Origin: Prorocentrum cordatum
Taxonomy: Eukaryota
Length of the DNA: 64,000 nucleotides
Assembly (NCBI GenBank): GCA_963575745.1
Contig: CAUYUJ010000002.1
Location: forward strand, 2,294,001-2,358,000
Direction of reading: 5' to 3'
The position numbers were made by a program, and so were the translations under genes. Positions 5,469-41,135 of this stretch are shown piece after piece. The notes under the pieces were generated by a model, which saw only the letters and a program-made list of their open reading frames with translations, was not told where the DNA came from and did not search any database. Numbering within the stretch: the first letter of the stretch is position 1; every line of letters begins with the position of its first letter.

Positions 5469-5490
5469 TCCGTTGCCAATTTGGCGCAAG
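5469..5490 (+). other. Full-length relic of the dinoflagellate spliced leader
   Basis: tccgttgccaatttggcgcaag matches DCCGTAGCCATTTTGGCTCAAG at 19/22 positions without gaps, at the 5' end of a LINE. Confidence 0.8.
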
Positions 5491-16955: not shown

Positions 16956-19242
16956 ACAAGTCGAGACCGTTGGTGCTTGCCGTCGCCTGGCGTTCTGAAG
17001 GTCCCCGTGCTTGTAGAAGGCCCCTTGTTTGGACGTCATGGGCGCTGTTCGGGCCCCACTTCGCAGCGGGTCCGAGTCCGATCCCGAGACGACGTCGGCT
17101 TCGACGTCGTCTTGGACACCAACGTGGGGCCGCCCTGCGCCCCGAGGTAGGGACAGAGACCGCCAGAGGAGCGGAGACTTTCAGGGGTGAGGAAGCGATA
17201 AAGGGTGGCTATAGCAAGACGATATGTTCTCCTTCGTCTTCCGGTGCACCCCATCGCTTACTTGACCTGCGCCTGACTGTTTTGGACCACTCGGCGCCCG
17301 CGGACTTCTAAAAGTGTCCTAGCAAGACCAGGGAGATGCAACCTGCGCACCTCGGGTGTCTGTCGGATTTCGAGCGTGCTGAAGAAGTGCACGTGGTTTC
17401 GAACAGCTAGGCATACACAGGAAGAAGGAGTCGTCAAAGACGTCGGAGGCGCATCACTAGTTCGTTCCGTAGCTAGAGGTGAGGAACAGCGATACAATGG
17501 TGTTGCGTTGCCTCTTGAGGTCCTGGAGGGGGGATGTGGATGGGTTCTTGGAGTCCAACTGGGGGTTTGTTAGGCATCTTGGGGCCATCTTGCGGAGGCT
17601 CGCTGGATGACTTCCGAGCCGCGCTCATGGAGTCCAGTCGTGTATTGTCTTTCGGGGCCTTCTTGGAACCTTGTCGGGCTCTCTGGGAGCGCTTGTTGGA
17701 GCTCTTTGTGGTGCTCTGTTGAGGCTCTCTTGGAGCCGAGAGCGGTCCTCTTAGACCCTTGTTAAGGCCTTCTGGTGACATCCTACGCTGAATGGAGAAA
17801 TCATCGAACAGCAAGTTTTTGTTCTACTGATGTGGGCATCTCGGCGGCATCCTTCGGAGGAACTGAAGCCACCTTGGAATCAGCCTGGGACGATATTGGA
17901 GCATCTTGGTTCCATCATGAAGGTCAGAATGGGCCAAGGTGGGGACGCTTGGTTTCGTGCTAGCGGTAACGCCCGTCATGGTGACGCCATAGCAGGTTTT
18001 CGGCTCTCTTGCTTGCGATCGTAGAAGTGAAGGCAGGTTGAGTCCGTGGGGATATTGCGTTCGAGCTCGAGGCTGGTAGGTCGCAGTCGACTCACATCCC
18101 ACCGCTAGCTGCAGAATCGGGGGGGGCCTCCTCTCGCGGCCGACCGAGTCGGCACTCAGAAGATTGCACGCGCAGGGTACTGTTTGAAGGACGTGCGGCG
18201 GCCACGATTCGCGGGCCATCTCGGAGCGACCTGGGAGAGAGGAGGAGACAGGTCGCCCGCAGCGGCGCGAGGGGCATCGCACGGCGTGCTCCGCAGGCGG
18301 GGCGGGACAGTCGTCTTTCTTCAGGGGGCGGCGAGAGAGAGCGACGGCAGCAACGTTCCACGCCTCGGCGCGGCTCGAGGCGCGAGGCGCGAGGGCCAGG
18401 GCTGGACTTACACGTTGTGTTGCTGGATCTCGGGTTTCGTTCTGCCTGTCGTTGTGGCAGAGAGGCCCAGGGGAAGAGGCAGGGCAGCTCGAAAAACAAG
18501 TCGGGCAGCGACACGAAGAGCACCGTTGAGGTCCAGCCCTGGCGAGGGTCGGGTGGCGCGAGCAAGCAGCAGCAGAGGGACGCAGTGGGGAGAGGAGCAG
18601 GGGCAACGGGGGGGGAAGACGACGGGGACGTGGAGTGGGGGCATCGCCCCAGGAAGAGCAGGAGCAGCAGGAGGCGGTCGGAGCACGCCTGCCCCCGCCG
18701 AGGCGCTGGGAGGCCGCCGGCCAGGGCCTCGGCTGGGATTTCCCTCCGACGAAGGCCCGCGGCCGCTCCCGCGGGCCCGGGCCACTCCAGGGCCCAGGAT
18801 GGGTGCATGTCCTCCTCCTCCTCCTCCTCCTCCTCTTCCTGCTCCCCCTCCTTCCTCCTCTTCCTCCTCCTCCTTCTCTTCCTCCTCCTCTTCCTCCTCC
18901 CCCTCCTCTTCCTTTTCGACGTTAGTCTAACATCAGCGGCGGGGTTGTTGCGTTCATGTCATCCCCCTCTTCGTTGACGCTGGGCAAACATCAGCGGAGG
19001 GGCTGTTGCATTCCTGTCCTCCCCCTCCACTTTGACGTTTGGCAAGCATCAGCGGCGGGGCTGAGGCGTTCTGCCCTCCTCTTCCTCCTCCTCCTCCTCC
19101 TCCTCCTCCTCCTCCTCCTCTTCCTCCTTCTTCCAGCACCGACTGGTGCCTGAAGCTGCACTGATGATACATGCATTGCAAGCAATCAAGGGCAAGCGGC
19201 CTGTCCTCACCCAGTTCGCTGAACATCGGGAGCGACATTGCC

Positions 19243-20110
19243 CTATCCGTGAGCATTGCAATACGGATCAAACTGCACCTGAAATTTACGCACAACAGCG
19301 TCTATCTCTGGGTCACCAACAATAGGTACAAGGCCAGAGACGCACAACATCAACGCTTGTGCCAACGTCATGGACATCCTGGGTGGATACTGCTTGGCCG
19401 CAGCCGTCTTAAAGGCCCCGTATGCATGAGTGCCTACTAATTCCAAACAGTGTGAACTGCACCTGCACTTGCCCTGGCCATGGAGAGCACGGATTAGGTC
19501 GAGCAGCGCCAAAGCATTAATGGCCATCAACGTCGTCGGTTTCCGAGACGGGGCACCACAACAACACTGGTCAAAATTCACAAACACTTGACGGACGCAC
19601 GGGGTCGAAATCCCAAGAGGGCCTTTACTTCTGGAAGCTTCCAAATCGAGGGCGATTGGGCACATTCGGGTTCGGCAGGGCGCTCAACAATACAGGCCGC
19701 CCCCACCGCGCAACAAACGTAAGCCGCCTGCAAAATTGTCTGTAGCAAGCGGTTGCCTAACATCACCTCCCTCCACTCTTTGGGGGACCTACACGCTATA
19801 CCCCAGAGGTGCTGTGCTGAACGCAATACGCGGGGCTTACAACTTCCGTGCGGGGGGGGATTGGCACGGCCTTTGCTTCACGTGTTACACGGCGGCCCTC
19901 CAATCACCCCCAGGGCTTGTCTAGTCCAAAGCATCAAAAGGATCAAACTATCAGAACTCTGCTTTGTTAAATCCCCAGCCTCTGGATGATTAGCGACGTC
20001 AACTGACAACATCACGACTGGCCAAGATATGCTCCTCTGGAGCGCCTCAAAATGCATTTGCACGTCACTTTCGCGCCCCTGCCCGCTGGAAAAATGTAAA
20101 AACTAGTTGG
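19243..20110 (-). pseudogene. C5 DNA cytosine methyltransferase domain at the C-terminus of LINE ORF2
   Basis: Decayed motif I (LVFTFF..G), LSVDVA..GDLT, GVIGGPPCNT (catalytic PC), IVERP (motif VI-like), SIWKLP, FDQC.CGAPSRKPT, TAAAKQYPP; several frameshifts. Confidence 0.75.
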
Positions 20111-20119
20111 TTCATGCAG

Positions 20120-21397
20120 GAGTTCGAGGGACCACAGGCTTCAACCCCAGGACCATCATGTCTCTCAACTCCTACAGTCGAAGCTCGCACAACTGCCTGT
20201 GGCACCACTCCGCCAAGAGTCGGACCCACAAAACGCTCGGGTGGTGCATCTGCAGACAGCTGCGCGCCACTTCGGGAGCGCACGCTCTTGGCAACCTTTG
20301 AATCTTCCTCGCGCAGCGCCACAATCTCGGGCTCGATGAGGGGCTGCAAAAAAAGCATGAGCAAGGTCAGACACTTGCGAGATCCAAATCTCAAGTGCCT
20401 CAGCAAACGTCCTCGAGTGCGCCAGTCGTACCCACAAGCTTGGCAACGCGACCCGACGGCAACAGATCCAGCAACATCAAGTTGCGGATGAGCAAGAGTC
20501 CGATGACGCGACCAAGCCACCTGACTAGTAAAAACTTGATCGCAATCGCGGCACGGGAAACGAGCTCAGCTTTAGGAGGCCTGATGGCTGGTGGCACGGG
20601 CAAGCCCCCCTTCTCGCAGACCTGTTGTAGCTCGGACCTCCACACCGCTACTTCGGCCAGCGCAACATGCTGCGCCAGTGCACTTCTTTTGGCCTCCCTG
20701 CGCCAAGAGACCCGCTGCTTCCCATCTTGCCCGGCGACCCAGAGCCACCGCGCGAGCCCACCAACGGGGCCCCACTCACGGCGGACCGCAACGCGGTCCT
20801 GCATCCAGAGAACATCATGATGGATCAGTTCGGCATAAGCCCCCTTTACTAAGCAATCGAGCACGCACGACAACCTCTGTGAAGCAAAGCGCAGCATACG
20901 CCGCAAAAACCGCAACCGACGAAGGCGTAGCACATCCATAGGCGGAAGACGCTGACTAACAACATAGAGCTCGGCATTCGACCACCCTAAATATTAGCCC
21001 CCTTGCTGTTTGTGCCCCGCGGCGGCCCGAAGGGACGTCGAGTGCGCCCCTTCCAAGGACGTCGCATTGCCCGAGGAAAGCGAACCCCAAACAGCACCGT
21101 GGAAAGAAAGGAACAACATCCTGCTGTGACAGAAGGCCATAGCGAACTTAATGCGAGATGGCAACTCCGAATCATTGCCACGCTTAAAAAACAGCTCCTC
21201 GCAACCCACCTGGCACGCTCAATTGCGACCGATTGCGATGGGCCAACTCGGCGTTCATGCTACCGCTGTCATGGATCATAGAACCAAAATGCTTGCACAC
21301 GCGCGCCACATGCACACTCTTGCAAATATTGGGCACATACAAGTTACCTTTAAGGGCGTCAATGCTACCACGCACACGCCCCCCCCCCCCTCCCCCC

Positions 21398-21431
<34 letters not shown>

Positions 21432-21912
21432 GACGGGATTTAAGAGGAGGGTGGACTTGCCTTTCCCGAAATTCACTCTGAAACCCCGCACGCTCATTTC
21501 ATTGTTGACGATAGCCACGACAACGCGAGCAAGCTGCAATCTATCGCATGCACTAGCACAGGCCTGCAACAAGATCGTCCACATATGTGGGCGAGCCAAT
21601 CGGAGCATCAAGGTCTGCTCTCGACCCGCCGAGAAAAAAAAACAGCTCGCACCAGGCGCTACCTCCTGAGCGTACAGCGTTAAACCCCCTCAAACATCCG
21701 CTCTCGAATCCGTTCATGGACGGGTGAAAAGGACAAGGTAAACAGTAGGTCAGCAGGCGGCAAAACCGGACGGGACCCCGTAGGGGCTTTCGCAACTTCT
21801 TTACACACTTTGACTTGAAACCAAGACGAAGAATTACGATCCGTGACCATGTCGTGCAAGCGCCTGCTGCCGACCAACTCAAACAAAGATAGCCGTGCCC
21901 CCCCCCCCACCC

Positions 21913-21952
<40 letters not shown>

Positions 21953-24130
21953 ATCGCCCCTTTCCAGCGCGAGGGGCAGCTGCAACGCATCGATCACACT
22001 TTCCAAATCATCCTCCCCTTCGGGTACCTTAACTAAAACATCACGCATTAACTGTGTGAAACGCGGCCCGAAGGTCGGTGAAAAAATATCGAGGCGAAGG
22101 ACCCAACCATATGCAATTGTGAATAACGCTTTGCGGGTGCCGCTTTCGGTGGGGCCCCTTATGGGGCCACGAAAGGCGCGCCACGAACGCTGTCCTGGGC
22201 GTGCGGGGCGCATGAGGGCGGTAGCACTGGTGCCTTCGGTGGAGCTCCTTATGGGGCCACGAAACGTGTGAGGGGTGTGCCAAATTGGGCGCGGCGCCGC
22301 CATGCCAACGCAGCCACTGGGGCCTTCGGTGGGGCTCCCTCTGGGGCCACGAAGCGTGTGAGGGGTGCGCCAAATTGTGTGCGGCGCCGCCATGCGAACG
22401 CAGCCACTGGGGCCTTCGGTGGAGCTCCTTATGGGGCCACGAAACGTGTGAGGGGTGTGCCAACTTGGGTGCGGCGCCGCCATGCGAACGCAGCCATTGG
22501 GGCCTTCGGTGGAGCTCCCTATGGAGCCACGAAACGTGTGAGGGGTGTGCCAAATGGGTGCGGCGCGCCATGCGAACGCAGCACTGAGGCCTTCGGTGGA
22601 GCTTATGGGGCCACGAAACGTGTGAGGGGTGTGCCAAATTGGGCGCGGCGCCGCCATGCCAACGCAGCCACTGGGGCCTTCGGTGGAGCTCCCTATGGGG
22701 CCACGAAACGTGTGATGGGGTGTGCCACATTGGGTGCGGCGCCGCCATGCCAACGCAGCCATTGGGGGCCTTCGGTGGAGCTCCCTATGGGGCCACGAAG
22801 CGTGTGAGAGGTGTGCCAAATTGGGTGCGGCGCCGCCATGCGAACGCAGCCGCTGGGGCCTTCGGTGGAGCTCCCTATGGGGCCACGAAGCGTGTGAGGG
22901 GTGTGCCAAATTGGGTGCGGCGCCGCATGCGAACGCAGCCACTGGCCTTCGGTGGGGTGGGGCCACGAACGTGTGAGGGGTGTGCCAAATTGGGTGCGGC
23001 GCCGCCATGCCAACGCAGCCACTGGGGCCTTCGGTGGAGCTCCCTATGGGGCCACGAAACGTGTGAGGGGTGTGCCAAATTGGGTGCGGCGCCGCCATGC
23101 GACCACTGGGGCCTTCGGTGGAGTTCCCTTATGGGGCCACGAAACGTGTGAGGGGTGTACCAAAGTGGGTGCGGCGCCGCCATGCGAACGCAGCCACTGG
23201 GGCCTTCGGTGGAGGCCCCCATTGAAGCCACGAAGCGTGTGAGGGGTGTGCCGAAATGGGTGCGGCGCCGCCATGCGAACGCAGCCACTGGGGCCTTCGG
23301 TTGAGCTCCCTATGGGGCCACGAAACGCGTGAGGGGTGTGCCGTGATAGTGGGAGGAGGGAGGAGGGAGGGGGGAGGAGGCGGAGGAGGAGGAAGGAAGG
23401 AGAGGAGAGGTGAGGAGACGCGGGGCACCGTCTCTTCAAAACGAGGACCCAACACCACAGGATGGTTGGGAAAAAAACTGTGAACCGTCCCTGACGTTTC
23501 ATGAAGTCTTGGAACACGCGAACCTGCAAGGAAGCCCCGGCCGTGCCCCTCCCTGGTCTGCCCCCATGTTGGACGACATCCATGAGCACCGAAGCTACCT
23601 CAAGTATTTTGCGACGTAAGAACTTGCGATGATGCATGCACACATGCACGCCCAAAGAAAATCTCCCTAAAATTTGATAAGAAACGCGGGTCGCCCTTCT
23701 TGTAGAGATCATGCGCCGCTCCACCTTTCCAAGCTAGAGGCCCCCAACACATGAGTTGAACTTTAACATCAAGGGCAACAGCAATTGTGCACTAACATCA
23801 GGGGCCGCTTTGTACATGTCATTGATGGTCAAGTCAGGCCCCGCAGCGCGCCTACTCGATGCACTCAGGATGGCCATTCGCAAGGAATCAAGCCCCATGA
23901 TATCGGCTATCTCACGCAACCCTCTCGAACTAAACGCCCTCTGCGTGTTATATGCTTGGCCATGCTGGCCAACTGAGCATGCTGTGGCTTTCTCAGCCTT
24001 CGCAAAGTGCTGCAGCAAACCTAACGCCGACGCTTCTTGGGAGCCAGGCCCACCGTGCTCATCCATTCCTAAAGGCAATACCCCGCTGTCCCCCTTTTGT
24101 CCTGACCCCTCCACATGCGAGCAAGCACCT
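20120..24130 (-). pseudogene. LINE reverse transcriptase, thumb and C-terminal Zn finger (split by 22081-23477)
   Basis: RAAGPD, YKKGDPR..NFREI, QHGGRPGRGT, FTDLRAAFHTV, GSRPG-like, PTYVDDL, VNFGKGKS, LRLRRLRFLRRM, CQACGYDWRTRGRLLRHL. Confidence 0.85.
22081..23477 (-). mobile_element. Family A Helentron/DINE-like element with 90-bp satellite (~13 units)
   Basis: A-run + gcgaaggacccaaccatatgca ... 90-bp array ... purine tract + gagacgcggggcaccgtctcttcaaaacgaggacccaacaccacaggatggttggg + A-run; inserted in an A-run inside the RT coding region. Confidence 0.75.
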
Positions 24131-25052
24131 TACTGGCCTCCACTCCTCCCTGCCGTGCCCCGACTCCGCTGCCTCTTTGACACCTGCGGCTGTGTCACGC
24201 AATACTTCGGTCCCGAAGGTTCCTTCTGGGGGCGCCCTGCGGTCTCCTCAAGAAGGCAAGCATAGCCTCAGCAATATCAGGCATGGTCAAGTCACCTGCC
24301 TTCCACAACCTGCACGAAAAGGCCAAGATACCCAAGGCCTCACTAAACCCGGTGAAACTCTAGAGGATTGCTCTAACTTCGCGGTCAGTACTGCCAGCAG
24401 TGCCCAAAACAGAATCAATCAGGCAATACAACGACCAAGTGTTACAGTCCCTGTACCTCCTGAGGGCCCCCCGAACGCCGCGACGGAACCGAATGGCCCA
24501 CGCGGTATCATGTTGCACATAATTCTTGAGGGAACCTCGCTGCTTTCTGGCGAAATGCTTGGCAGCACAACGGTGCAACCATTCAGTAAACATCCTAAAA
24601 TGGTCGCACATATCTACAGACCAATGAATTTTTGGACACTGCACCAACTCAGCCGCGAACGCCTCTTGCTTGGCTAAGTCCCTGGCACCGCGCACGTCTA
24701 ACGCTGGTAAATTGCCCTTGGGCACTACAGAGTCCGCCCATTCGAGCCGCACAAAAACTGGATAGTGATCCTGATGCCTACGATCCACATCTATGTCGTG
24801 GCCAACTCCATGCTCACTGATGTGCTCGCGCCAGCACAACGGCACGCAAACGTAATCGATGCGATGCCGCGTACTCTGCTTAGACTGATACGTGCATGGA
24901 GGGGTGGAGGAGGGGGTCCAGGTATCAGCCGCACACAACTGCGCGCGACACAACGACCCATGGAACATGGCACCGTTATCGCCCTCGATATCGGCATGCC
25001 CCCCCCCCACCCCACCCCCCCACCCACCCCCCCCCCCCCCCAACCCCCCACC

Positions 25053-25111
<59 letters not shown>

Positions 25112-28100
25112 CACACACACCACCCACGCAACAAAAAAAAATAGCCTGGCGAAGGACCCAACCATATGCAGCTGTGAATACCGTAATAGTGAACATCTTC
25201 TTCGGTGCGGCGCCGCCATGCCAACGCAGCCACTGGGAGCTTCGGTGGAGCTCCCTATGGGGCCACGAAGCGTGTAAGGGGTGTGCCGGCATGGGTGCGG
25301 CGCCGCCATGCGAACGCAGCCACTGGGGCCTTCGGTTGAGCTCCCTATGGGGCCACGAAGCGTGTGAGGGGTGTGCCAAATTGGGTGCGGCCCCACCATG
25401 CGAACGCAGCCACTAGGGCCTTCGGTGGAGCTCCCTATGGGGCCACGAAACGAGGGGTGTGCCAAATTGGGTGCGGCGCCGCCATGCGAACGCAGCCACT
25501 GGGGCCTTCGGTGGAGCTCACCATGGAGCCACGAAACGTGTGAGGGGTGTGCCAAATTTCATGCGGCGCCGCCATGCGAACGCAGCCACTGGGGCCTTCG
25601 GTGGAGCTCCCTATGGGGCCACGAACCTTGAGGGGGTGCTGAAATGGATTGGCCTGCGCCGCCATTGCGAACGCAGCCACTTGGCTTTTTTCGGTGGTCC
25701 CTATGGGGCCACGAAACGTGTGAGGTGTGCCGATTGGGGTGCGGCGCCGGCCATGCCAACGCAGCCCCTGGGGCCTCGGTGGAGCTTCCCTTATGGGGCC
25801 CACGAAACGTGTGAGGGGTGTGCCAATTGGGTGCGGCGCCGCCAATGACGAATGTCGCCACTGGGCCTTCTTTGGATCTCCCTATGCGGCAACGAAACGT
25901 TTGAAGGGTGTGGCCAAATTGGGTGCGGCGCCGCCATGCACGCAGCCACTGGGCATTCGGTGGGGCTCCCTATGGGGCCCACGAAACGTGTGAGGGTTGT
26001 CCAAACCAAGCACGGCGCCGCCATAGCCAACGCCGCCGTGCCACTGGGAGCCTTCGTTGGAGCTCCTCATTGGGCGAGCTCCTCATTGGCCACGAAACGT
26101 GTGAGGGGTGTGCCAGAATGGGGGGTGGAACCGCATGCGGGCGCAGCCACTGGGGCCTTCGGTGGAGCTCCCTATGGGGCCACGATACGTGTGAGGGGTG
26201 TACGGTGTGACAAATTGGTGCGGCGCCGCCATGCTGAACGCAGCGCTGGGGCCTTCGGTGGAGCTCCCTATGGGGCCCACTAAACGTGTGAGGGTGTGCC
26301 AAATTGGTGCGGCGCCGCCCATGCGAACGCGGCCACGGGGGCCTTCGGTTGGAGCTCCCTATGGGCCCGAAACACGCGTGAGGGGTGTGTCAAAATTGTG
26401 GTGCGGCGCCCGCCATGGGCGAACGCAAGCACTGGGCCTTCGGTGGGAGCTCGCCTATGGGGGCCACGACACGTGTGAGGGTGTGCCAATTTGGATGCGG
26501 CGCCGCCAGCGAACGCAGCCACTGGGGCCTTCGGTGGAGCTCCCTATGGGGCCACGAAACGCTTGAGGGGTGTGCCAAATTTGGTGCGGCGCCGCCATGC
26601 GAACGCAGCCACTGGGGCCTTCGGTGGAGCTCCCTATGGGGCCACGAAACGTGTGAGGGGTGTGCCGAAATGTGTGCGGCGCCGCCATGCGAACGCAGCC
26701 ACTGGGGCCTTCGGTGGAGCTCCCTATGGGGCCACGAAACGCGTGAGGGGTGTGCCGTGATAGTGGGAGGAGGTAGGAGGGAGGGGGGAGGAGGCGGAGG
26801 AGGAGGAAGGAAGGAGAGGAGAGGAGAGGAGACGCGGGGCACCGTCTCTTCAAAACGAGGACCCAACACCACAGGATGGTTGGGGAAAAAACGGTGGAAC
26901 GTCCCTGACGTTTCATGAAGTCTTGGAACACGCGAACCTGCAAGGAAGCCCCGGCCGTGCCCCTCCTTGGTCTGCCCCCACGTTGGACGACATCCATGAG
27001 CACCGAAGCTACCTCAAGTATTTTGCGACGTAAGAACTTGCGATGATGCATGCACACATGCACGCCAAATAAGATCTCCCTAAAATTTGATAAGAAACGC
27101 GGGTCGCCCTTCTTGTAGAGATCATGCGCCGCTCCACCTTCCCAAGCTAGAGGCCCCCAACACATGAGTTGAACTTTAACATCAAGGGCAACAGCAATTG
27201 TGCACTAACATCAGGGGCCGCTTTGTAAATGTCATTGGTGGTCAAGTCAGGCCCCGCAGCACGCCTACTCGATGCACTCAGGATGGCCATTCGCAAGGAA
27301 TCAAGCCCCATGATATCGGTTATCTCACGCAACCCTCTCGAACTAAACGCCCTCTGTTGCTTGTTATATGCTTGCCCAAGCTGGCCAACTGAGCATGCTG
27401 TGGCTTTCTCAGCCTTCGCAAAGTGCTGCAGCAAACCTAACGCCGACGCTTCTTGGGAGCCAGGCCCACCGTGCTCATCCATTCCTAAAGGCAATACCCC
27501 GTTGTCCCCCTTTTTCCTGACCCCTCCAAATGCGAGCAAGCACCTTACTGGCCTCCACTCCTCCCTGCCGTACCCCGACTCCGCTGCTTCTTTGACACCT
27601 GCGGCTGTGTCACGCAATACTTCGGTCCAGTCGGCCCGAAGGTTCCTTCTGGGGGCGCCCTGCGATCTCCTCAAGAAGGCAAGCATAGCCTCAGCAATAT
27701 CAGGCATGGTCAAGTCACCTGCCTTCCACAACCTGCACGAAAAGGCCAAGATACCCAAGGCCTCACTAAACCCAGTGAAACTCTCGAGGATTGCTCTAAC
27801 TTCGCGGTCAGTACTGCCAGCAGTGCCCAAAACAGAATCAATCAGGCAATACAACGACCAAGTGTTACAGTCCCTGTACCTCCTGAGGGCCCCCCGAACG
27901 CCGCGACGGAACCGAATGACCCACGCGGTATCATGTTGCACATAATTCTTGAGGGGACCTCGCTGCTTTCTGGCGAAATGCTTGGCAGCACAACGGTGCA
28001 ACCATTCAGTAAACATCCTAAAATGGTCGTACATATCTACAGACCAATGAATTTTTGGACACTGCACCAACTCAGCCGCGAACGCCTCTTGCTTGGCTAA

Positions 28101-28441
28101 GTCCCTGGCACCGCGCACTTCTAACGCTGGTAAATTGCCCTTGGGCACTACAGAGTCCGCCCATTCGAGCCGCACAAAAACTGGATAGTGATCCTGATGC
28201 CTACGATCCACATCTATGTCGTGGCCAACTCCATGCTCACTGATGTGCTCGCGCCAGCACAACGGCACGCAAACGTAATCGATGCGATGCCGCGTACTCT
28301 GCTTAGACTGATACGTGCATGGAGGGGTGGAGGAGGGGGTCCAGGTATCAGCCGCACACAACTGCGCGCGACACAACGGCCCATGGAACATGGCACCGTT
28401 ATCGCCCTCGATATCGGCATGCCCCCCCCCACACACCCACA

Positions 28442-28487
<46 letters not shown>

Positions 28488-28498
28488 ACCCACGCAAC
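23478..28498. repeat. Tandem segmental duplication: 23478-25132 repeated at 26892-28498
   Basis: Near-identical LINE segments differing by scattered substitutions and small indels; both carry the same stop after NSCVGGL (23734 and 27147). Confidence 0.9.
25133..26891 (-). mobile_element. Family A element, hybrid copy (~17 satellite units, indel-rich centre)
   Basis: Left end is near-identical to the 28499 copy; right end (ccgtgatagtgggagg...) is near-identical to the 22081 copy. Confidence 0.75.
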
Positions 28499-29921
28499 AA
28501 AAAAAAATAGCCTGGCGAAGGACCCAACCATATGCAGCTGCGAATACCGTAATAGTGAACATCTTCTTCGGTGCGGCGCCGCCATGCCAACGCAGCCACT
28601 GGGAGCTTCGGTGGAGCTCCCTATGGGGCCACGGAACGTGTAAGGGGTGTGCCGAAATGGGTGCGGCGCCGCCATGCGAACGCAGCCACTGGGGCCTTCG
28701 GTTGAGCTCCCTATGGGGCCACGAAACGTGTGAGGGGTGTGCCGAAATGGGTGCGGCGCCGCCATGCCAACGCAGCCACTGGGGCCTTCGGTGGAGCTCC
28801 CTATGGGGCCACGAAACGTGTGAGGGGTGTGCCAAATTGGGCGCGGCGCCGCCATGCCAACGCAGCCACTGGGGCCTTCGGTGGAGCTCCCTATGGGGCC
28901 ACGAAACGTGTGAGGGGTGTGCCAAATTGGGTGCGGCGCCGCCATGCGAACGCAGCCACTGGGGCCTTCGGTGGAGCTCCCTATGGGGCCACGAAACGTG
29001 TGAGGGGTGTGCAAATTGGGTGCGGCGCCGCCATGCGAACGCAGCCACTGGGCCTTCGGTGGATATGGCCACGAAACTTGTGAGGGGTGTAAATTGGGTG
29101 CGGGCCGCATGCGAAAGCCACGGGGGCCTTGCTCCCTATGGGGCCACGAAACGTGTGAGGGGTGTGCCAAATTGGGTGCGGCGCCGCCATGCGAACGCAG
29201 CCATTGGGGCCTTCGGTGGAGCTCCCTATGGGGCCACGAAACGTGTGAGGGGTGTGCCAAATTGGGTGTGGCGCCGCCATGCGAACGCAGCCACTGGGGC
29301 CTTCGGTGGAGCTCCCTATGGGGCCACGAAACGTGTGAGGGGTGTGCCGAGATGGGGTGCGGCGCCGCCATGCGAACGCAGCCACTGGGGCCTTCGGTGG
29401 AGTTCCCTATGGGGCCACGAAACGTGTGAGGGGTGTGCCGAATTGGGTGCGGCGCCGCCATGCGAACGCAGCCACTGGGGCCTTCGGTGGAGCTCCTATG
29501 GGCCACGAAACGTGTGAGGGGTGTGCCAAATTGGGTGCGGCGCCGCCATGCGAACGCAGCCACTGGGGCCTTCGGTGGAGCTCCCTATGGGGCCACGAAA
29601 CGTGTGAGGGGTGTGCCAAATTGGGTGCGGCGCCGCCATGCGAACGCAGCCACTGGGGCCTTCGGTGGAGCTCCCTATGGGGCCACGAAACGTATGAGGG
29701 TGTGCCAAATTGGGTGCGGCGCCGCCATGCGAACGCAGCCACTGGGGCCTTCGGTGGAGCTCCCTATGGGGCCACGAAACGTGTGAGGGGTGTGCCAAAT
29801 TGGGTGCGGTGACGAGGGAGGGGGCAGCGGGAGGAAGGAAGGAAGGAGAGGAGAGGAGAGGAGACGCGGGGCACCGTCTCTTCAAAACGAGGACCCAACA
29901 CCACAGGATGGTCGGGAAAAA
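28499..29921 (-). mobile_element. Family A element with 90-bp satellite (~14 units)
   Basis: Same termini; period 90 bp (ctatggggcc at 28801, 28891, 28981); inserted in the APE domain between DANSRLG and EGDNG. Confidence 0.75.
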
Positions 29922-30420
29922 TTGCCTAAACGAGAGTTCGCATCAGCAGGAACGATATCTACGCCATATCTTGTCATAACTTCCTCTGCCGCTTGCCACC
30001 ACTCCTTGCGGTTACGGCGGGGGGCCTCGGGACAGGGGGCATGGCAGACCATCGCAACAACCTGCCGAAACGGCGCGCTGATCCTCGCTACGAGCCACCT
30101 TGGGCACGCATCGACAGCATGGCAAAAGCGGGCTTAAGCAATACATCTTCCCCATTTCGCCTAGCATACGGAATGTGGCAACTAACCCATAACTCACACC
30201 CCAAGTTATCCCCCTTCTCTGCGCCTGAAGCTAAGCAATAATAGTTATCAGCCATGCGACCACTGCGAGGGGTCCGAGCTTCCTGCGCGCCTATCATCAA
30301 AGCCCCTGCCTCCGAGAACCTTTGCCGATGCTGTTGCCCCCTCAGGATTGCTTTATCACCTTTAACAAAGTCCTGATCAGTCTCTGCGTTGTACGAAACG
30401 AGTAACAATTTGCGCAGCAC
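29922..30420 (-). pseudogene. APE endonuclease, N-terminal part (C-terminal part at ~28150-28420, duplicated at ~24730-25000)
   Basis: LLVSYNAET, IGAQEART, GCELWVS, DANSRLG; then GDNG, HRIDYVCVP, QDHYPV. Confidence 0.85.
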
Positions 30421-30674
30421 CACCGTTGCAGGACGCTCTTGGTCAAGCTCTTGTTGCCCAAAGGTCCCCGGGGCCGACAGCAAAAAAAATCCAGTTGCCG
30501 TCCTCTGGGCAATGCTGGGCCTGATCAGGGAGCCTAAACGAATGATCATCGTCAAAGGGAAACTGCTACCTTTCACATGGTTTAAGCTCTGCAACCCATT
30601 GCCATGCCAACTCAGGCGAGTAAAACAGCTCTCTGGCGATGCCACGGCGTGCACAATCGCATTCGAATGCGAGG

Positions 30675-31135
30675 GTTGATTTGGCCACTCCATCTGCCAT
30701 CTCGTTCCAACAAGTACGATAGTGCCCATCTACATGCATGATGTGCAACCTCACACTTGCCCTGGCAAGCTCGTACAAATGTCGAGCCAACGCTGCCAGC
30801 CCAGGCTCAGCATCTGCCACTGCCAATCCTAAAGTCAAACTGATGGCGACCTCAGAGTCAGACATGATATACACTTCTGCGGGGGGAGCAGCAACGTCAC
30901 ACGAGGGGGCACACTTCCCTATGACCCACACCAAAGCCCAAGTAATGCATACACGTTCGGCTGTCGCACTGCTGATTCGCTTCTTGAGCTGAAAACCCAT
31001 GGTGATATGAACACGCCCTGCAATAAACTCCATGACACAAACTTCCCCTTCCCCATTGATGCATATGCCGATCAAAGCCCAACCACTCTGGTCCTTTTCT
31101 TCGGGGACCGAGCCGTCCGTGCACAAGACGACGCG
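30675..31135 (-). pseudogene. RNase H domain located upstream of the APE domain
   Basis: VVLCTDGS..SGWA, SSATAE, YIMSDSE, HVDGH..WNEMADGVAK in ORF 30566..31393. Confidence 0.85.
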
Positions 31136-31389
31136 CTGTGGCGGTTGCTCCACCTGGGGAGACACCTGCAGCGCGAACCTGGCCACATCCTCAAGCTCGA
31201 CGTCCCCTACATCGGTCAAGAATGCCAGCTGTGAGCCAAACCGATCCAGGCATCTGATGACACGGGCGGCCCCAGGAAACTCACACCCGACGTGGCCTTC
31301 GGTTGGAGCAATCAGGGTATTCAAACTTATGGTCATGTTTGGTGCAGGTTGGGCCTGAGAGCTGGATGTGCTGGAGGCCCCGTCAAGTG

Positions 31390-33543
31390 TCAAACAAGCA
31401 TCGGGCTGGAACTCCCGGACCCCCCCCCAGTGACCCGCCGCTCCCCCCGATTGGTATGCTGATGCAGAGTGGCTACAGTGAGAGCTGATGCACCAAGATC
31501 CGTCGGCGCACCCTCAGACTGCTGCAATCGAGTGAAAGAGCGAACGTCCTCCTCCCAGGCGCCCGAACCCCAACCCGCGTCGTCGACGGCCGCCTGTTGC
31601 CGATGCCCAGGTCCAGACGCGGCATTCTGAACTAATGTGCTTGCTGCAGTGCTGCCTGCAGCTGGCGAGACGTTAAAAGTGGAGCGACACATGTCGCCTG
31701 AGCGGGTGAGGGAGTCCCCAACAGCCAGCCTCTGCAGCAAACTCGTATCTGCAAGCTCATCAGGCACTACGGCCTCCGTGGCCGCTTGATCGCCCTCTGG
31801 CTCATGCTGCTCCACTTGAGCAACTGCTGGCGGCGGTTCGACTCCTTCCGTCGCTCCCCCAAAACCCAGGGCCCCATCATTAGCACTCCCGCTTGACGGT
31901 GCCTCTGGCCCCACAGATGGTGCCGCGGGATCGTGAGAGTGCAGTTCGGATGCCCAAAAAGCGTCTGACCCACGCTTGGCACGCACGAAATCTTCGTTAC
32001 TCAAATATGGCCGCCCTCGGGAGCTCATTCGCAACATGTGGCGTGCACGGCATACTGCGCCAAAAGCATCGCGCACGTGCGAACTCCAGGCGGCAACTTT
32101 CATGCGCAACAATATTTTGACACGACGAACATACGCACGACGCTCATCATTAGCAAGCGCCCATACATCTGCACAAATCTCACGTGCCAAATCGTATCGC
32201 GCCTGCCAAGATGGGGCAAGCGGCGCCAAAACACGGCTGGTAGCTATCTGCACCCCGACCTTCTCTACACAGAAACGCAACCAATCGGCACACGCAAATT
32301 CGGCATCCCACGCGGCCGTCACACCTGACCACGGGCAGCATCGCCTAGACAAGACCCTGGCTAGCACATGTGCGGCGTGGTTGGCCTGCTGTGCGCCTGG
32401 CCTCTCAGGCGGCCTATTGTACGGACCCATCCCCAACCCAGTACCGAACGAGCTCCCCCCCTCCTTCAATAGACTGTGCAAGCTGGCACCATTGGCGCTC
32501 GCTGATGGCACTGCAACCTACCTGGGGCCACTCATGGTCAAGCAGGCCTGCAAACGCAACAGCATGAGCGGGCCTATCGCAACTAGAACGCTGAGACAAG
32601 ATACTGCTGCTGGCTGCTTCGTGCATATCGTGAAACGACCCACATACGCTACTCACAACATGCAACGACTGAACACTCACTACTACTTGCTGCCGTGCGT
32701 CTTGGTGGGGGCCCCAGGCTTTGCAATCAACCTGGGCTCCTTGCGAGGCGGCGACTTCACCTCGGCGTCCTCTAATTTGGCGGCACCAAACTCCTCTTTC
32801 ACTGGCATGCCAATCGCCTCGGCCTGCTTCACTGGCCTGGGCATGGCCACTGGCGAAGTAGCGCTGATTCCCATATCCACTGGCTGAACATACTCCTGCT
32901 GCGTGTCGATCATCTGCGTAGGTGAGCACACTGGTGTTGGAGGCGGCAAAGGCACCTCCTCCTTCGGCTCCATGAATGCTGGACTCGTAGGCGCGGGAAC
33001 CTCTGCTGGCACCTGTTCGCTCTGCGTGCCCGCGAACGGCCTCCCTGGCGTAGGGCACCCTGTGACCAATGATGGCGTATTCGGCGCCTGTAACGGCGAC
33101 CTTGCTGCTGGCGTCGGTGTCCACTGCCTTGGAGGAATCGTCGAGCCCGGCGCAGCAGGTGCTGGCACTGCTGCTGGCGTCGCTGGTGCTGGAAGCCCTG
33201 TCCCCCCAGGCGGCGGCGGTGGAAACTCTGGCGGCGCCAACGGTGGGGCATGAAACCCCACACTCGCACTGGCTGCCGCGCCCGCTGGTGGCATGAGGCT
33301 CGGCCTTCCACCCTGCGGCGCAGCTGCCGCCCCAGCGCTTTGCCCTGCTGCTATCTGCGCCGGCATCCCGATCATGGAGTCGCACTGCTGCTGGCTCTGC
33401 GCCATCTGGTACATGATACACTTCATCTCGTGGAGCTCCTGATTGATCAGCTGCTGCTGCTGAGGCTGGCCCACGCGCGGCTCCTCCTCCTCCTCCTCCT
33501 CCTCCTCCTCCTCCTCCTCCTCCTCCAACCGCAGCCCCCGCAC
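31390..33543 (-). pseudogene. ORF1-like or N-terminal region of the methyltransferase LINE
   Basis: Two long same-strand ORFs (32683..33543, Gln/Pro-rich; 31390..32511) directly upstream of RNase H; no recognised domain. Confidence 0.45.
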
Positions 33544-34204
33544 GCGTCTGGCTCAGAGTCGCGTGACCACCGGGGCTGCGGAACGTTGGGCACGGGCCAC
33601 CGGCCGTCTGCTGAGAGCCCCGGCTTGCCCAGCTCCTCTCGGACTTGTCCAGCTCGCGGCCCTCTGCGGCTGGCTCTGTTGCCGCGGCATCTGCCCCTGT
33701 GCGCCCTCCCGTGGCTGACCCCACCCAGCGTCGTGATGTCTCGCGTTGCTTTCGGAGCAGCTCCCGCGCGCTCTCTCCGCCTCGGCCTTGGGCGTGCCGC
33801 GGCTCGCCGCTCCGCCTCCTCCTCCTCGATCTCTGCTCCCCAGAGGATCGACCTCCATGGCCGCCGGGGCCTCCTCGGGGGCCAGACTCGCCGGCGCTGC
33901 CGAAAGTGCTTGGCTGGGGCCTGGCCACTGGCCCCTCCGGCTGCATGGGCCGTCTGTGCACTGCAGGGTATCCGACAAGCTTGCCGGCGGTGCGGGAAGG
34001 GGAGGGGGCGGTCTCGCCGTATCTGAGTTAGGAATACGAGTTGAGTCAGATCAATAATGAGTCCAGGGGCCACAGTCCAAAATACAGGTTTCGTATGGGA
34101 CTTCCTGAAAGACGGACGGTTTCCGGCGCGGTTTCTTCAGATTTCTTGGGGGGCGGCTTCCGCTTAGTTCACGCTGCGTGTCTCCTTCTGTGGTTGGGTC
34201 CTGG

Positions 34205-34930
34205 TTCCGAATCCTCCTGTGTGTTGGGTTTTTGTTTTGAATAGGGCATTGTTGACCCCACATCCTCTCTCCTCTCCTCCCCCTCCTTCTCCCCCCCCTC
34301 TTCCTGCCTCCTCCTCCTCCTCCTGCGCTGCCCCCTGCGTGGCTGCGAACTGCGCAATTGTCGTCACGTTCGTGGGCTCCTGGCAGGTCCAGCGGAGTCG
34401 AGGGCCATCGAGACTTTGCAGCTCCCTGGGTGGCTGCGATCTGTTCAACTGTCGCCACTTTCGTGGGCTCCTGGAAGGCACGGCGGAACAGAGGAGTACC
34501 CGAGACCTCGCTGTTCCCTGGGCGGCTACGAAGTATGCAATTGTCTCCACCTCTTGTGGGCTCCTGGGAGGCGCGGCGGAGTAGTGGAGTACCTGAGACC
34601 TTGCAGCTCCTAGGGTGGTTGCGAACTGCGCAATTGTCGCCATGTCCGTGGGCTCCTAGGAGGCGCGGCAGAGTAGCGGAGCACCCGAGACCTCGCAGTT
34701 CCTTGGGTGGTTGCGCATTGCGAAATTGTCTCATTTTCGTGGGCTCCTGGGAGGCGCGGCGGAGTTGCGGAGTATTCGAGACCTCGCAGCTCCTAGGGTG
34801 GTTGCGAACTGCGCAATTGTCGCCACTTCCGTGGGCTCGTGGGAGGTCCAGCGGAGTCGGGGGGCCATGCGCACCGAGACGGGACCTCAGCTGCGAACTG
34901 CTCAGCTGTCACCACGTTTGTGGTTTCGTG
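34205..34930 (+). mobile_element. Family A-related terminus with CT tract and ~91-bp satellite (~7 units)
   Basis: tcctcctgtgtgttgggtttttgttttgaa resembles the family A end; tgcgaactgcgcaattgtcg recurs every ~91 bp from 34345 to 34892; distal end not identified. Confidence 0.55.
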
Positions 34931-37329: not shown

Positions 37330-40300
37330 CCAGATCCGCGCAGCCATTGCCAACGTGAGAACTCTGAATTCATCAAGGTACGAGGATGAATGCATCACAC
37401 TCGCTGGGGTCAGTGCGCTGGGACGCGCGCAGCTCCTCGAGCGGCAGTTCAATGACATCGACATCGATGTGGTATGCATCCATGAGGGCCGGGCTTCCAG
37501 GGACCAGGTGAAGTCTGGAGCCTTCTACAAGATGACCGTCGCAGCCGGAACACCTCAGGGACAATATATATGGTGTACAAATCTGGCTCCGGCATTCTTT
37601 CACATCGTATGAACTCTTCTCCCACGTTGTCTCCCCACGGCTCATTCTCACAGTGTGCCGAGTGCACAACGGTGGGATCCTCGCAATCGTAAGTGGGCAC
37701 GCCCCTACTGAAGTGGCAGCTGAAACCGACAAGCAGGATTTCTGGAACAGCCTCCAGTCATGGACGGCTTGGATATTACAAACATGGCCTCGAGCACAAC
37801 TTGTACTTGGGCTGGACGCGAACGCCCGCGTCGGCGAGATTCAGACCCCATCGATACATCCGGACATGCCGGCGAGGGAAAATGAAAACGGCACCTACTT
37901 CAGGACATTTCTGGAAGGTCACGAGCACAGTCTTCGTGCGTTGAACGCTTTCGCTGGCGAACAGTACACATGGAGGTCCGCAGGAAGAACCACAGCGCGA
38001 ATCGATTACATCTGCTCCAACATGGAGCCGTGCTGGGAGCATGATCCTCCCAGAGTGTTCGAGGGCATCGAGCTCGCCACAAGCGCACAGGAATATCACC
38101 GTGTAGTTGGAGGCGACTTGTGGCTTAAGCCTGGGGGCGCTCCAGCAGCCTCGGTCGAACTCAAGCTCAACGTAAACAGTGCGCGCCTCAACGACCTTAG
38201 CTGCCAGAGCGTGTTCCAGTACAGCCTCTGGGAGCACGTGCCGAAGGTCGCGCAGACCTTTAATGTTGACGCCAAGCTGGATTTGATCATCGATGCCACA
38301 AAGTCTGCGGCTGCGGCCGCTTTCGGCCCCTTGGAGAAGGTGCCCAGGCGGCCATGGATCTCGGAGCGGACTTGGAACCTTCTGCGCCCTCTTCCAAGAG
38401 TGCGGCGGTTCATGCACGCGATCTTTGACGCTGCCAAGGCGCGCCGCCTCGCTCAGGCGTGGCACGCATGGAGGTCCCTGACCCCCGAGCCTTTCACACA
38501 GGGGGCGCCTCGCGATCCAAGCCGGCCAGCAAAGGGCTGGCTTGCCCTTGCGAGAGGAGAGGAGGCGATGCGGGCCAAACGGAATATGAGTTTGCTAGCC
38601 ACCAGGTGCGAGCAAACACTCGGGTTTGCCCACGGGGTCATCCGCCGTCTCGTCGATGACGACAAGAGACATTTCTACCATGACATGGCGCGGCGCGCCG
38701 CCTGTGCCGACGATCGTGGTGACAGCAAGGAGGCATACAAGCTTGCGAGACTCATGGGCGGCTTCAGACCACGATCCGTGGAAGCAATTGCAGAAAAGAT
38801 GGCACCTTGGCACGCGCACCAGAGGAGCGCGGTCGCCGATGGGTGGAACATTTCGTCGAGCTTTTCGCGGGCACCACCCTGCCCTCTTGGCGGGGGGCGC
38901 GCGTGGACTTCCAGGGCTACGCACCCCGCGGTTCTTTTACTGCAACAGTCACTGACGTCGACCAGAAGGTTCAGGCGCTGAGTGGCGCAAAAGCGGCTGG
39001 GCCTGACGGCCTCCCGCCTGGAGTCGTGCAAGCAGGCGGATGCCCTATGGCCGTCGTGATCCACGACGTCATCCAGACCACTATCAATGCTCTCACGTGG
39101 CCGGCCAGATGGAAAGGTGGCCGGATGGTGACCCCGTGGAAGGGGAAGGGATCCACCACTGAGCGCAACGACCACCGTGGGACACTGGCCGCAGATGCCA
39201 TGTCCAAGGTACCCACCGGCCTGCTGAAGGACGCCGTTCAGCCCTCAGCCGGCCATTTCTTGCCAGAAACCAATTCTGCGGCAGGCCAGGTGGAGGCACA
39301 GACTTCCCCTCGCACACACTGCGCGCGATGATGGAGTGCGCGACGTGTGCCGCGGTGTCATTCGCCATCATCTCCTTTGACCTCGCGCAAGCATTCGACC
39401 GTGTAGTCAGAGAAATCGCACACGGATGGGAAGCCGCAGCCGGCCCACAGCATGCTGTTGATACCTCCCGAGTGGGCTACCTTCGGAAGCTCGGGCTCCC
39501 CGTGCGCACGGCGAGGACGATTGTTGAGCACGTCCGGGACAGCGGTTGCGTCTTCGACCGCTGGTCCGTTGATCCAGTTGTGAAGGCATTGATCCAGAAT
39601 CTCCACACCACGGCGTGGTTCGCTGTGACATGGGCGTCTGACGTTGTCGTCACGGCTACTGGGGGGGCGCCAGGGACGCAAGCTCGGCGGTTTCATTTTC
39701 TGCTGCGCATATGAGGAGGCACTCGGTAAGATACGGCGCACCCTCCACGAACACAATATCCACGTTGTCTTCAAGTCTGACACCAACGTCCCCTTTTGGC
39801 AGTCCGCCGAAGAAGCCAAACACGAAGACGAACTCGTGGAGGTGACCTACGTCGACGACGAAGCAATGTCGATTGTGTCATCGTCCCCGAAAGGTTTAAA
39901 ACTGTAATATCTGTGCTGCTCGACACATACAGCATTGTTTTTTCACTCTTCTGGGCTGAACATTAATTGGAAGAAGGGGAAGAGCGAGGCCATCGTCCAT
40001 TGTCGTGGAAGGAGCGCCGCAGCCATGTTGCCAACTTCGATCGGAGCACGGCCTACGGCTGGCCCGTGCTGATGGGAATACATTCATGCACGCGGTTGGT
40101 CCGCACAAACATCTTGGGAGCACTCTTGCTTCTAATGGAAGCGTTGTGCCGGAGGCCCGGCAGAGAGTTTCGTCGGCAATGGCGGCATACGCGCCGATGT
40201 CGGTGAAGGTATTCGCCTCCCCAGCCCTCCCCCCGACGCTCAAAATCCACCTCGTGGTGAGCCTTGCGCTGCGCAGGCCACTGCACAACGTAGCCGCAAT

Positions 40301-41135
40301 CAAGACGACCGCGCCGGCACTCCGCGAGTTGAATGCACCGCGCATGAAAGTCTCGAGGAGGACGGTGCGGGACACGGTCCACTTGTGGGCCCCAGAACTG
40401 AACGACAGGAAGGTCCGGGAGAAAGCTATGCAACCTTCCATCGATCGCTCTGCGCTGCGAAAGAGGCTCCGCTACCACGTCAGGCTGGCGCGGTGGAGGC
40501 CCCGACTGCGATGGTCAATCCTCCTATCACGTCCACAAGGCAAGCCACTCCCATACATTGTCCAGATGACTGCGGACGTCGAGGAGATGAGGAGGAGGAG
40601 CCACGACATGGTCAGTTTGCCACCGCTCGCGGACGCCCCGCACGCGTGGCTCGCGACCATGGCAGACGAGGGGTGGACTTCGTGGGCGCAGAATATTTGT
40701 TTTTATGAGTCCATCCTCGATCGGACTGTCGCGCCGCAGGCCCCAGAAGTGGGTCTAGCGGCGAACTCCCCACGTTGCCGGCGCGGCCTCGCATGGGCGA
40801 CGGAAAAGGCTTATCTTGCGCGTCGCCGCAAGGTCCACAATGAAACAGCGCCAATTAAACATTGGATTGACGATAGCGGCGTCTGCCCTGAATGTCTCAC
40901 AGATCTCAAAGAGCGGTTCCGCGTTGTTCGCCACCTCGCGGACAAGAGGCGGCCGAAGTGCCGCCATGCTGTCTTCCAGATGCGCCCAAGACTGCCAGCA
41001 GGCCATGTGCAGACGTGGGAGGCGCGGGACTGCGAGCGTAAGCGGCGCGCCCGGCAGCAGGGCTCCACGCACATAATTGCGACGGGCTCTGCCATTACAG
41101 CCGAAGGCAAGCGAGTGGGCCATGTCCAAAAGTGA
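37330..41135 (+). pseudogene. LINE ORF2: APE endonuclease, reverse transcriptase, C-terminal Zn finger
   Basis: IANVRTL, VVCIHEGR, GHAP, GLDANARVG, ENENG, RIDYI; KAAGPDGLP, WKGKG, FDLAQAFDRV, GGRQG, VTYVDD, INWKKGKSE; CPEC..VVRHL. Confidence 0.9.

Follow-up and report, generated by a model that had tools for sequence, protein, structure and literature searches.

The 64,000-nucleotide stretch of Prorocentrum cordatum DNA analyzed here (assembly GCA_963575745.1, contig CAUYUJ010000002.1, positions 2,294,001 to 2,358,000 of the forward strand; referred to below as the window and numbered from its first nucleotide) carries a broken copy of a long interspersed nuclear element (LINE) on its minus strand. 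Read from 31231 down to 19243, this copy is collinear with intact relatives and consists of ribonuclease H (RNase H), an apurinic/apyrimidinic-type endonuclease (APE), reverse transcriptase (RT), a C2H2 zinc finger and a C-terminal domain of ~300 amino acids (aa), here called the tail domain. We are nearly certain that it belongs to a dinoflagellate APE-type LINE family in which one long open reading frame (ORF) encodes all five domains in this order. Judging from a structure predicted for a relative, the tail domain is folded like the catalytic domain of C5-cytosine methyltransferases (C5-MTases), and the reading we favor is that of a dead LINE copy whose tail domain, with its Pro-Cys motif, was derived from a methyltransferase and is probably still enzymatic in kind. 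A preliminary description of this DNA had proposed an element with its own cytosine methyltransferase. The C5-MTase fold and the retained Pro-Cys speak for that proposal, whereas the loop for S-adenosylmethionine (SAM), which reads FSGxRR, and the absence of a significant match to the Pfam profile PF00145 speak against it.

The family is abundant: among 1.84 billion cluster representatives, a degraded 146-aa query translated from 19243-19683 matched 181 at E ≤ 1e-3, including 11 at E ≤ 1e-10, and many of the matched proteins are 1000-3700 aa long and carry the matching segment at their C-terminus. Relatives with a species name come from Fugacium kawagutii and Cladocopium sp. (Symbiodiniaceae), and S. 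kawagutii Skav214673 is also among them. When 28 long relatives were searched with Pfam, RVT_1 was found in 16, one of the C2H2 families in 15, RNase_H in 2, and DNA_methylase and Exo_endo_phos in none. A family profile built from five full-length members and compared with PDB sequences matched human LINE-1 ORF2p (E 1.9e-14), R2 (E 1e-10) and RNase HI (E 3e-4), with no match to an APE.

The single-frame architecture was observed directly in L009, a 6750-bp metagenome contig with one frame open from base 1 to base 6375 that encodes a protein of 2124 aa (P0350) containing all five domains. Hidden Markov models (HMMs) of the family, from whose training sets the L009 sequence was absent, placed RNase H at aa 278-427 (E 2e-26), APE at aa 496-769 (E 1e-54), RT at aa 1060-1473 (E 2.6e-93) and the tail domain at aa 1819-2122 (E 5e-106). 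This contig was found by scanning metagenome contigs with the closer family alignment A5, the alignment A1 being too diverse for a pattern scan; P0012, a relative used alone as query, found nothing in the metagenome contigs, and the A5 scan also returned a weak 32-aa match in a second contig, L010. Two other relatives are single proteins as well: P0012 has 2258 aa and is encoded on a contig of 9268 bp, and P0014 has 1772 aa, its contig being 5597 bp long. By tblastn, P0350 and the window are collinear between window positions 31231 and 19303, with aa 244-455 at 31231-30587 (E 1.2e-14), aa 498-579 and 596-675 on the two N-terminal APE pieces, aa 678-1107 at 28418-27171 (E 1.9e-39) and aa 1103-1209 at 27186-26869. 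Collinear matches were also obtained with P0012, P0014, P0121, P0099, P0076 and P0145. The P0350 mapping and the 181 matched representatives lie far beyond what chance would give.

A shorter relative, P0130 (1081 aa), has RNase H at aa 57-202, a partial APE at aa 272-412, a finger at aa 590-612 and the tail motifs at about aa 860-964, with no RT match; an internal deletion or a faulty gene model may account for this. Among IMG/VR viral contigs the pattern GPPCETW gave 23 matches, none of which was confirmed. In prokaryote genomes there were 11 pattern matches, of which tblastn upheld two, and these over no more than 43 residues. We read both as chance, because on their two Anaerolineales metagenome-assembled contigs they are located on the strand opposite a genuine minus-strand gene and do not belong to any open frame themselves.

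The minus-strand order given in the preliminary description, namely RNase H, APE, RT with YVDD, zinc finger and tail, was recovered with every part at or near the place assigned to it. The RNase H type 1 domain occupies 30665-31141, N-terminal to the endonuclease, as delimited with a family HMM for which 11 relatives, but not the window sequence, were used (E 1.1e-15, HMM positions 3-151). Its match to Pfam PF00075 (E 3.7e-4, 21.1 bits) stays under the cutoff of 25.8. The D-E-D-D residues are found in TDGS (31109-31120), TAER (30953-30964), MSDSE (30851-30865) and NEMAD (30692-30706). The same domain scores well above that cutoff in P0014 (RNase_H at aa 42-163, E 2.5e-12, 47.6 bits against 25.8), and the family RNase H HMM matches all 11 relatives of at least 1700 aa. 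RNase H precedes RVT_1 in each of the nine relatives for which both coordinates are available, mostly at a spacing of ~780-800 aa. The placement of RNase H ahead of APE within one element, as first described for this locus, is therefore a family trait and not an accident of the locus, as the L009 frame also shows.

The endonuclease lies in three pieces. Its N-terminal two thirds are encoded at 29894-30420 in two frames (30420-30181 and 30133-29894), corresponding to positions 32-112 and 121-197 of the family APE HMM, and its C-terminal third (HRIDYVCVP ... DHYPV), identified by HMM positions 198-288 and by translation, is at 28157-28424. Pfam PF03372 (Exo_endo_phos) matched none of the 28 relatives at E ≤ 0.01 and none of five full-length proteins at E ≤ 1. 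A structure predicted from 10 members for the region between RNase H and RT (pLDDT 74.6, pTM 0.80) was compared with known structures by Foldseek, which ranked ExoIII/APE1 and the endonuclease domains of TRAS1, L1 and R1Bm highest, with a best E of 3.5e-8 and 254 structures at E ≤ 1e-3. Because the best matches of the predicted fold are LINE endonucleases and ExoIII/APE1, the modeled endonuclease is taken as real and as too divergent for Pfam.

The linker and the N-terminal part of RT, which reaches about position 146 of the family RT HMM, are encoded at 26869-28156. The RT core with motifs A to E is at 21432-22100, as determined from tblastn to nine relatives, the RT HMM and translation: motif A at 22100-22050, motif B at 21859-21695, YVDD at 21574-21585 and motifs D/E at 21545-21432. 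The thumb and the following linker (20566-21431) are frameshifted and weakly conserved, with P0350 aa 1427-1666 aligning to 21318-20577 at 25-36% identity. The C2H2 zinc-finger region (20401-20565) was identified by Pfam and by alignment to the fingers of relatives; zf-C2H2_11 passed its cutoff of 27 with 27.3 bits (E 2.9e-6), and zf-C2H2_4, at 26.4 bits (E 9.2e-6), fell slightly short of its own cutoff, also 27. The window's own ORF pieces gave, with Pfam, only the sub-threshold RNase H and the zinc finger.

The tail domain is encoded, in broken form, at 19243-20102, and the ORF stop codon that ends it is at 19243-19245. It was delimited with the family tail (MT) HMM, which matches three pieces (E 2.6e-27, 5.5e-30 and 2.9e-39), and with alignment A1. 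The five motifs named in the preliminary description were all located: GGPPC at 19887-19901, ERP at 19677-19685, FDQC at 19564-19575, RKPT at 19534-19545 and AKQYP at 19384-19398. An AlphaFold model of the P0012 tail domain based on 22 sequences (pLDDT 86.7, pTM 0.86) was compared with several structure libraries. With Foldseek against PDB, all of the matches listed were C5-MTases (DNMT1, DNMT2, DNMT3A/B, DIM-2, MET1, M.HaeIII and a prophage enzyme), 29 of them at E ≤ 1e-3, the best being DNMT1 (4da4_A, E 7.1e-5, probability 1.00). With VIA-align against 48,161 chains, ranks 1-17 were occupied by C5-MTases only, with Z-scores from 11.0 down to 8.8; DNMT3B reached Z 11.0 (rmsd 4.7, 209 residues aligned) and M.HhaI Z 10.8, and the first other fold was a short-chain dehydrogenase (SDR) at Z 8.8. 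In BFVD, which holds predicted viral structures, the best matches were small (210-220 aa): the first was an unnamed 210-aa protein (E 4.8e-8), followed by a putative cytosine DNA methyltransferase of Tetraselmis virus 1 (218 aa, E 5.1e-7, TMt 0.67), and a putative DNA methylase of Lactococcus phage P087 (212 aa, E 1.1e-5) was also matched. The nearest named clusters in the ESM Atlas, which we use as a lead only, were cytosine methyltransferases (score 0.85); the nearest clusters are of 216-236 aa, and PF00145 is carried by 17% and 73% of the members in two of them, with no family common in the third. Based on these comparisons of a modeled structure, the tail domain has the catalytic-domain fold of C5-MTases, and it very probably descends from them. 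Its ancestor would have been a small methyltransferase without a target-recognition domain, like those of phages and algal giant viruses.

Conservation was counted over 229 family sequences, with denominators that vary by column, and the conserved blocks were read against the secondary structure of the P0012 model. Six of them fall at sites that, by topology, correspond to motifs of C5-MTases. At the motif I site, HLFSGxRRxxD follows strand 1. At the motif II site, LSxD places an Asp at the end of strand 2 that is kept in 109 of 112 sequences; in methyltransferases this residue binds the ribose of SAM. The motif IV site, after strand 4 (model residues 95-100), reads GPPCETW, with Pro in 124/128, Cys in 127/128 and the next Glu in 125/129. 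Strand 5 (model residues 168-174) ends in EHP at the motif VI site (Glu 173/174, His 170/174, Pro 174/176). In the hairpin of strands 6 and 7 the sequence DQCxxG...KPT stands at the motif VIII site, a correspondence based on topology only; its Gln is kept in 198/208 and the next Cys in 190/208, and the KPT that follows 8-9 residues after Gln-Cys has Lys in 195/211 and Thr in 205/212. KxYP precedes the last helix at the motif X site (Tyr 202/205). A further Arg of the family is conserved in 128/130, and only ~45 residues separate KPT from KxYP, where methyltransferases carry the target-recognition domain. The domain retains the would-be nucleophile and general acid, and its cofactor loop is systematically different.

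Because the residues kept are those of attack on C6 of a pyrimidine, and given that polar residues are conserved across sequences that are 30-40% identical, we infer from the alignments that the tail domain would act as an enzyme. In the process that can be envisaged, APE would nick the target and RT would copy the element RNA, the N-terminal RNase H would take away the RNA template, and the Pro-Cys nucleophile of the tail domain would act on a pyrimidine in the nucleic acid of target-primed reverse transcription. The simplest substrate would be cytosines of the new cDNA copy or of its target site, which would become methylated, and the element may in this way have methylated its own copies, as was suggested before. 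That the tail domain still performs SAM-dependent cytosine methylation is, going by the model, a tentative proposition to which we give somewhat less than an even chance.

Several results weigh against a methyltransferase-derived, active tail domain. The fold was predicted on P0012 and not on the broken window copy, the Foldseek TM-scores are low (about 0.3), and the margin over generic Rossmann folds in VIA-align, ~2 Z units, is real but modest. No significant C5-methyltransferase profile match, of the kind called for in the preliminary description, was obtained: PF00145 matched the tail domain or its relatives in 0/28 cases at E ≤ 0.01, in 2/22 at E ≤ 10 (best E 0.11), in 1/48 at E ≤ 1 (E 0.2, with 11.5 bits where the cutoff is 22, and only over profile positions 56-80 around motif IV), and not at all in P0350 (0/1). 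The tail family profile gave no match to PDB sequences at E ≤ 10. Profile-to-profile comparison by hhalign reached E 0.012 and a probability of 3.5% with E. coli Dcm, and E 0.04 and a probability of 1.3%, over 27 columns near motif IV, with an alignment of 11 true C5-MTases (A3); both runs paired just the stretch GPPCETWS with GFPCQxFS, and a forced global alignment was meaningless. The A3 alignment contains seven phage genes, E. coli Dcm and three orthologues, the phage genes having been included because the Dcm search returned only close orthologues (at least 74% identity). Sequence methods therefore do not place the tail domain in the C5-MTase family. Within the motifs, FxGxGG is replaced by FSGxRR (Gly 103/104, Arg 100/105, Arg 105/105), whereas G95 and G97 of LFAGIGG are invariant in A3; ENV is likewise invariant in A3 and the tail family has EHP; and the two arginines of QxRxR are not evident, with no Arg-x-Arg in the tail family. 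Germ-line self-methylation at CpG is not reflected in the composition, in that neither the window copy nor L009 is depleted in CpG (observed/expected 0.77-0.97 in parts of the element, 0.84 in the window and 0.97 in the L009 ORF). SymbioLINE-Dnmt, a dinoflagellate LINE with a canonical DNMT, is reported to be CpG-depleted, and its methyltransferase gave no DNA methylation in yeast, a result that its authors call inconclusive in the available part of the paper (de Mendoza et al. 2018; PMC5890265).

These points could be accommodated by a tail domain that is derived from a methyltransferase and has become an inert module, one that would have lost SAM binding and would serve as a nucleic-acid-binding or base-flipping clamp in target recognition or second-strand steps. 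The two arginines standing in place of the SAM-loop glycines, the lack of a large target-recognition domain and the undepleted CpG all favor such a module, and inert proteins of the methyltransferase fold are known, DNMT3L being among the structural matches (Z 7.3). We nevertheless consider it rather unlikely, in view of the would-be catalytic Cys, Glu and Gln being the most conserved residues of the domain, which is unexpected for mere binding, and of the retention of the strand-2 Asp.

It is improbable, though worth stating, that the tail domain represents a new enzyme class that arose from C5-MTases and uses a different cofactor or chemistry. In that case the Arg-Arg pair might suit the pocket to a cofactor different from plain SAM, for example a nucleotide or a carboxylated analogue of SAM, or alternatively might suit the cleft to an RNA:DNA hybrid, and the LINE would put a non-canonical mark on cDNA or template during target-primed reverse transcription. 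If true, this would constitute self-marking by a dinoflagellate LINE that is distinct both from host DNMTs and from SymbioLINE-Dnmt.

A tail domain that is an unrelated Rossmann-like domain, its likeness to C5-MTases, including Pro-Cys, having arisen by convergence or chance, would explain why sequence and profile similarity is not significant, why an SDR at Z 8.8 stands not far from the best methyltransferase at 11.0, and why the TM-scores are so low. We regard it as very improbable, however, as C5-MTases alone head three structure libraries, the weak Pfam and hhalign alignments put GPPC in register on the GFPC of motif IV, six conserved motifs occupy six topological motif sites, and language-model features point to cytosine methyltransferase clusters. 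The preliminary description had also asked whether other copies would reveal RNase H or the methyltransferase as separate neighboring insertions, and although the window copy by itself is too broken for continuity to be read from it, such a mosaic is scarcely credible because the five domains of L009 lie in one unbroken 6375-bp frame that maps collinearly onto the window, P0012 and P0014 likewise being single proteins and the distance from RNase H to RT being nearly constant in most relatives.

We therefore return to a dead copy of a LINE with an enzyme-like tail domain. The window copy cannot make any of the proteins of the element, and the preliminary description was right to call it inactive, as it contains stops, frameshifts, two insertions and a duplication. 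In the tail domain there are in-frame stops at 20112-20114 and 20103-20105, both at the N-terminal edge, and at 19878-19880, with a frameshift at about 19590-19610, and the RT core has several frameshifts and a T-run at about 21920-21950. Near-invariant positions of the tail family are also substituted, the F of FSG by S, the first motif I Arg by G, the E after PC by N and the H of EHP by R.

Insertion 1 lies inside APE (28425-29893) and consists of a conserved flank, a 90-bp satellite at 28570-29809 and a (CA)n run at 28430-28486, as identified by Tandem Repeats Finder (TRF). Its junction is clean, P0350 aa 675 and 678 and APE HMM positions 197 and 198 abutting across it. Insertion 2 lies inside RT and, together with a tandem duplication, spans 22101-26868, where TRF found satellites at 25204-26756 and 22225-23342 and a (CA)n run at 25049-25120; its junction is equally clean, with P0350 aa 1209 and 1212 on either side. 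Within it, at 25007-23455, duplicate tblastn and HMM matches revealed that the C-terminal third of APE and the N-terminal part of RT are present a second time, and the 3.4-kb duplication pairs 22225-25073 with 25587-28499 at 91% identity over 2944 columns. The simplest history would be that the same satellite-bearing sequence inserted twice and that unequal crossing-over between the arrays followed, by which these parts of APE and RT would have been duplicated.

The 90-bp satellite forms three arrays (22225-23342, 25204-26756 and 28570-29809) of 9-14 units with 81-92% matches. The same flank of ~130 bp is present on the high-coordinate side of each array (23343-23475, 26757-26890 and 29810-29921), and a (CA)n run borders the other side of two of the three. 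A similar array (72-73%) is located at 1332-1818 on the opposite strand. The satellite block behaves like a satellite-carrying insertion that struck the LINE twice.

An extension of the element up to 34030, as had been proposed, is not supported, in that no relative matched 31232-34030. The ORFs 31390-32517 and 32414-34027 gave no Pfam match; these two and the ORF 32683-33552 matched none of ~225 family proteins, and for ORF 31390-32517 no homologue was found among proteins of 206-657 aa. Some sequence upstream of RNase H may nonetheless belong to the element, because the L009 frame has 277 Arg-rich, poorly conserved residues before RNase H (bases 1-831) with no match in the window; instead of having a separate ORF1, members of the family may be extended at the N-terminus by a long stretch of low conservation. 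Just 3' of the stop codon, a unit of 58 bp is repeated in tandem 2.5-2.8 times at 18905-19071 and a (TCC)n run occupies 18810-18913, and a 92-bp tandem repeat (5.7 copies, 78% matches) is found at 34339-34857, just past the upper boundary originally proposed.

The window has a GC content of 61% and is rich in repeats. The preliminary description had proposed that RNase H was acquired separately from two LINEs of this window with RT and RNase H. One other LINE-like element, degraded and on the plus strand, was found, at 37536-41132; it is related in APE (E 5e-12 with the family HMM) and RT (E 3.7e-16), with 21-29% identity by tblastn. It gave no Pfam match of any kind (E ≤ 0.01 on 12 ORFs), and the family HMMs detected neither RNase H nor the tail domain in it. 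Outside the element, 112 stop-to-stop ORFs of at least 170 aa yielded no Pfam match at E ≤ 0.001, and Pfam detects next to nothing in this part of the genome. On the minus strand at 63725-63922, a short segment resembles the C-terminal portion of the RNase H HMM of the family (E 0.002) and may be the edge of another element near the end of the window. A single match, with three mismatches, to the dinoflagellate spliced-leader sequence occurs at 5470-5490 on the plus strand (none in 100 shuffles); it may be a relic of a retroposed transcript and may also point to the host group.

The family combines a DNA-modification-type domain of a divergent lineage, in a new position of a LINE, with a front-placed RNase H. 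In the literature outside Repbase and subscription journals, no description of this architecture was found. Retrotransposons with their own DNA-modifying enzymes are rare and are relevant to the question of how such elements cope with host silencing. Surveys of methyltransferases borne by transposable elements that are based on PF00145 will have missed the present family, because this profile does not detect the tail domain. The invariant pattern of Pro-Cys, Glu and Arg-Arg poses the question whether the domain is a methyltransferase, another pyrimidine-modifying enzyme or a dead fold.

Among known systems, LINE-1 and other APE-type LINEs resemble the family in having APE followed by RT in one protein, human L1 ORF2p being the best PDB sequence match, and LINE-1 differs in lacking the N-terminal RNase H, the C2H2 fingers (the L1 finger is of the CCHC type) and the tail domain. 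With M.HhaI, DNMT1 and DNMT3 the tail domain shares the predicted fold (Z 10-11), the Pro-Cys after strand 4 and the Glu that ends strand 5; unlike canonical C5-MTases it has FSGxRR, EHP and DQC...KPT, lacks a large target-recognition domain and is not matched significantly by their profile. The small viral C5-methyltransferase-like proteins, which are its best structural matches, are also small and without a large target-recognition domain, a likeness seen by predicted structure only, and they are free-standing genes, whereas the tail domain is fused to RT.

The precedent invoked in the preliminary description, a Dnmt-bearing LINE of dinoflagellates, does exist as SymbioLINE-Dnmt of Symbiodiniaceae, and it is a different element, in which a canonical DNMT is encoded in ORF1 upstream of an ORF2 with APE and RT (de Mendoza et al. 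2018; PMC5890265). As far as the accessible text of that paper goes, the two are alike as dinoflagellate LINEs with APE, RT and a cytosine-methyltransferase-type domain for which methylation of RNA, cDNA or new copies has been proposed. The present family is unlike it in that the tail domain is C-terminal in the RT protein, after the fingers, is invisible to PF00145 and is accompanied by an N-terminal RNase H. Because that study, by its available account, searched with PF00145, it could not have seen the tail domain. In the accessible portions of a 2025 paper and a May 2026 preprint, the only such dinoflagellate elements are SymbioLINE-Dnmt and the DNMT3-bearing DIRS element SymbioDIRS-Dnmt3, both of which were found via PF00145.

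With RNase H placed ahead of RT, and here also before APE, the family adds an independent example to the one known among non-LTR elements. The earlier example is the oomycete Utopia, whose upstream RNase H was called unique among non-LTR elements in the part of the report at hand (Kojima and Jurka 2015; PMC4640811). On that account, both have RNase H before RT; in Utopia a restriction-like endonuclease is located downstream of RT, whereas in this family the endonuclease is of the APE type and is flanked by RNase H and RT. The RNase H of Utopia is described there as "archaeal", with Arg in place of His (PMC4640811), in contrast to the type 1 RNase H of the dinoflagellate family, which matches bacterial and eukaryotic enzymes of that type (E. 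coli RNase HI, E 3e-4) and keeps a His before the last Asp.

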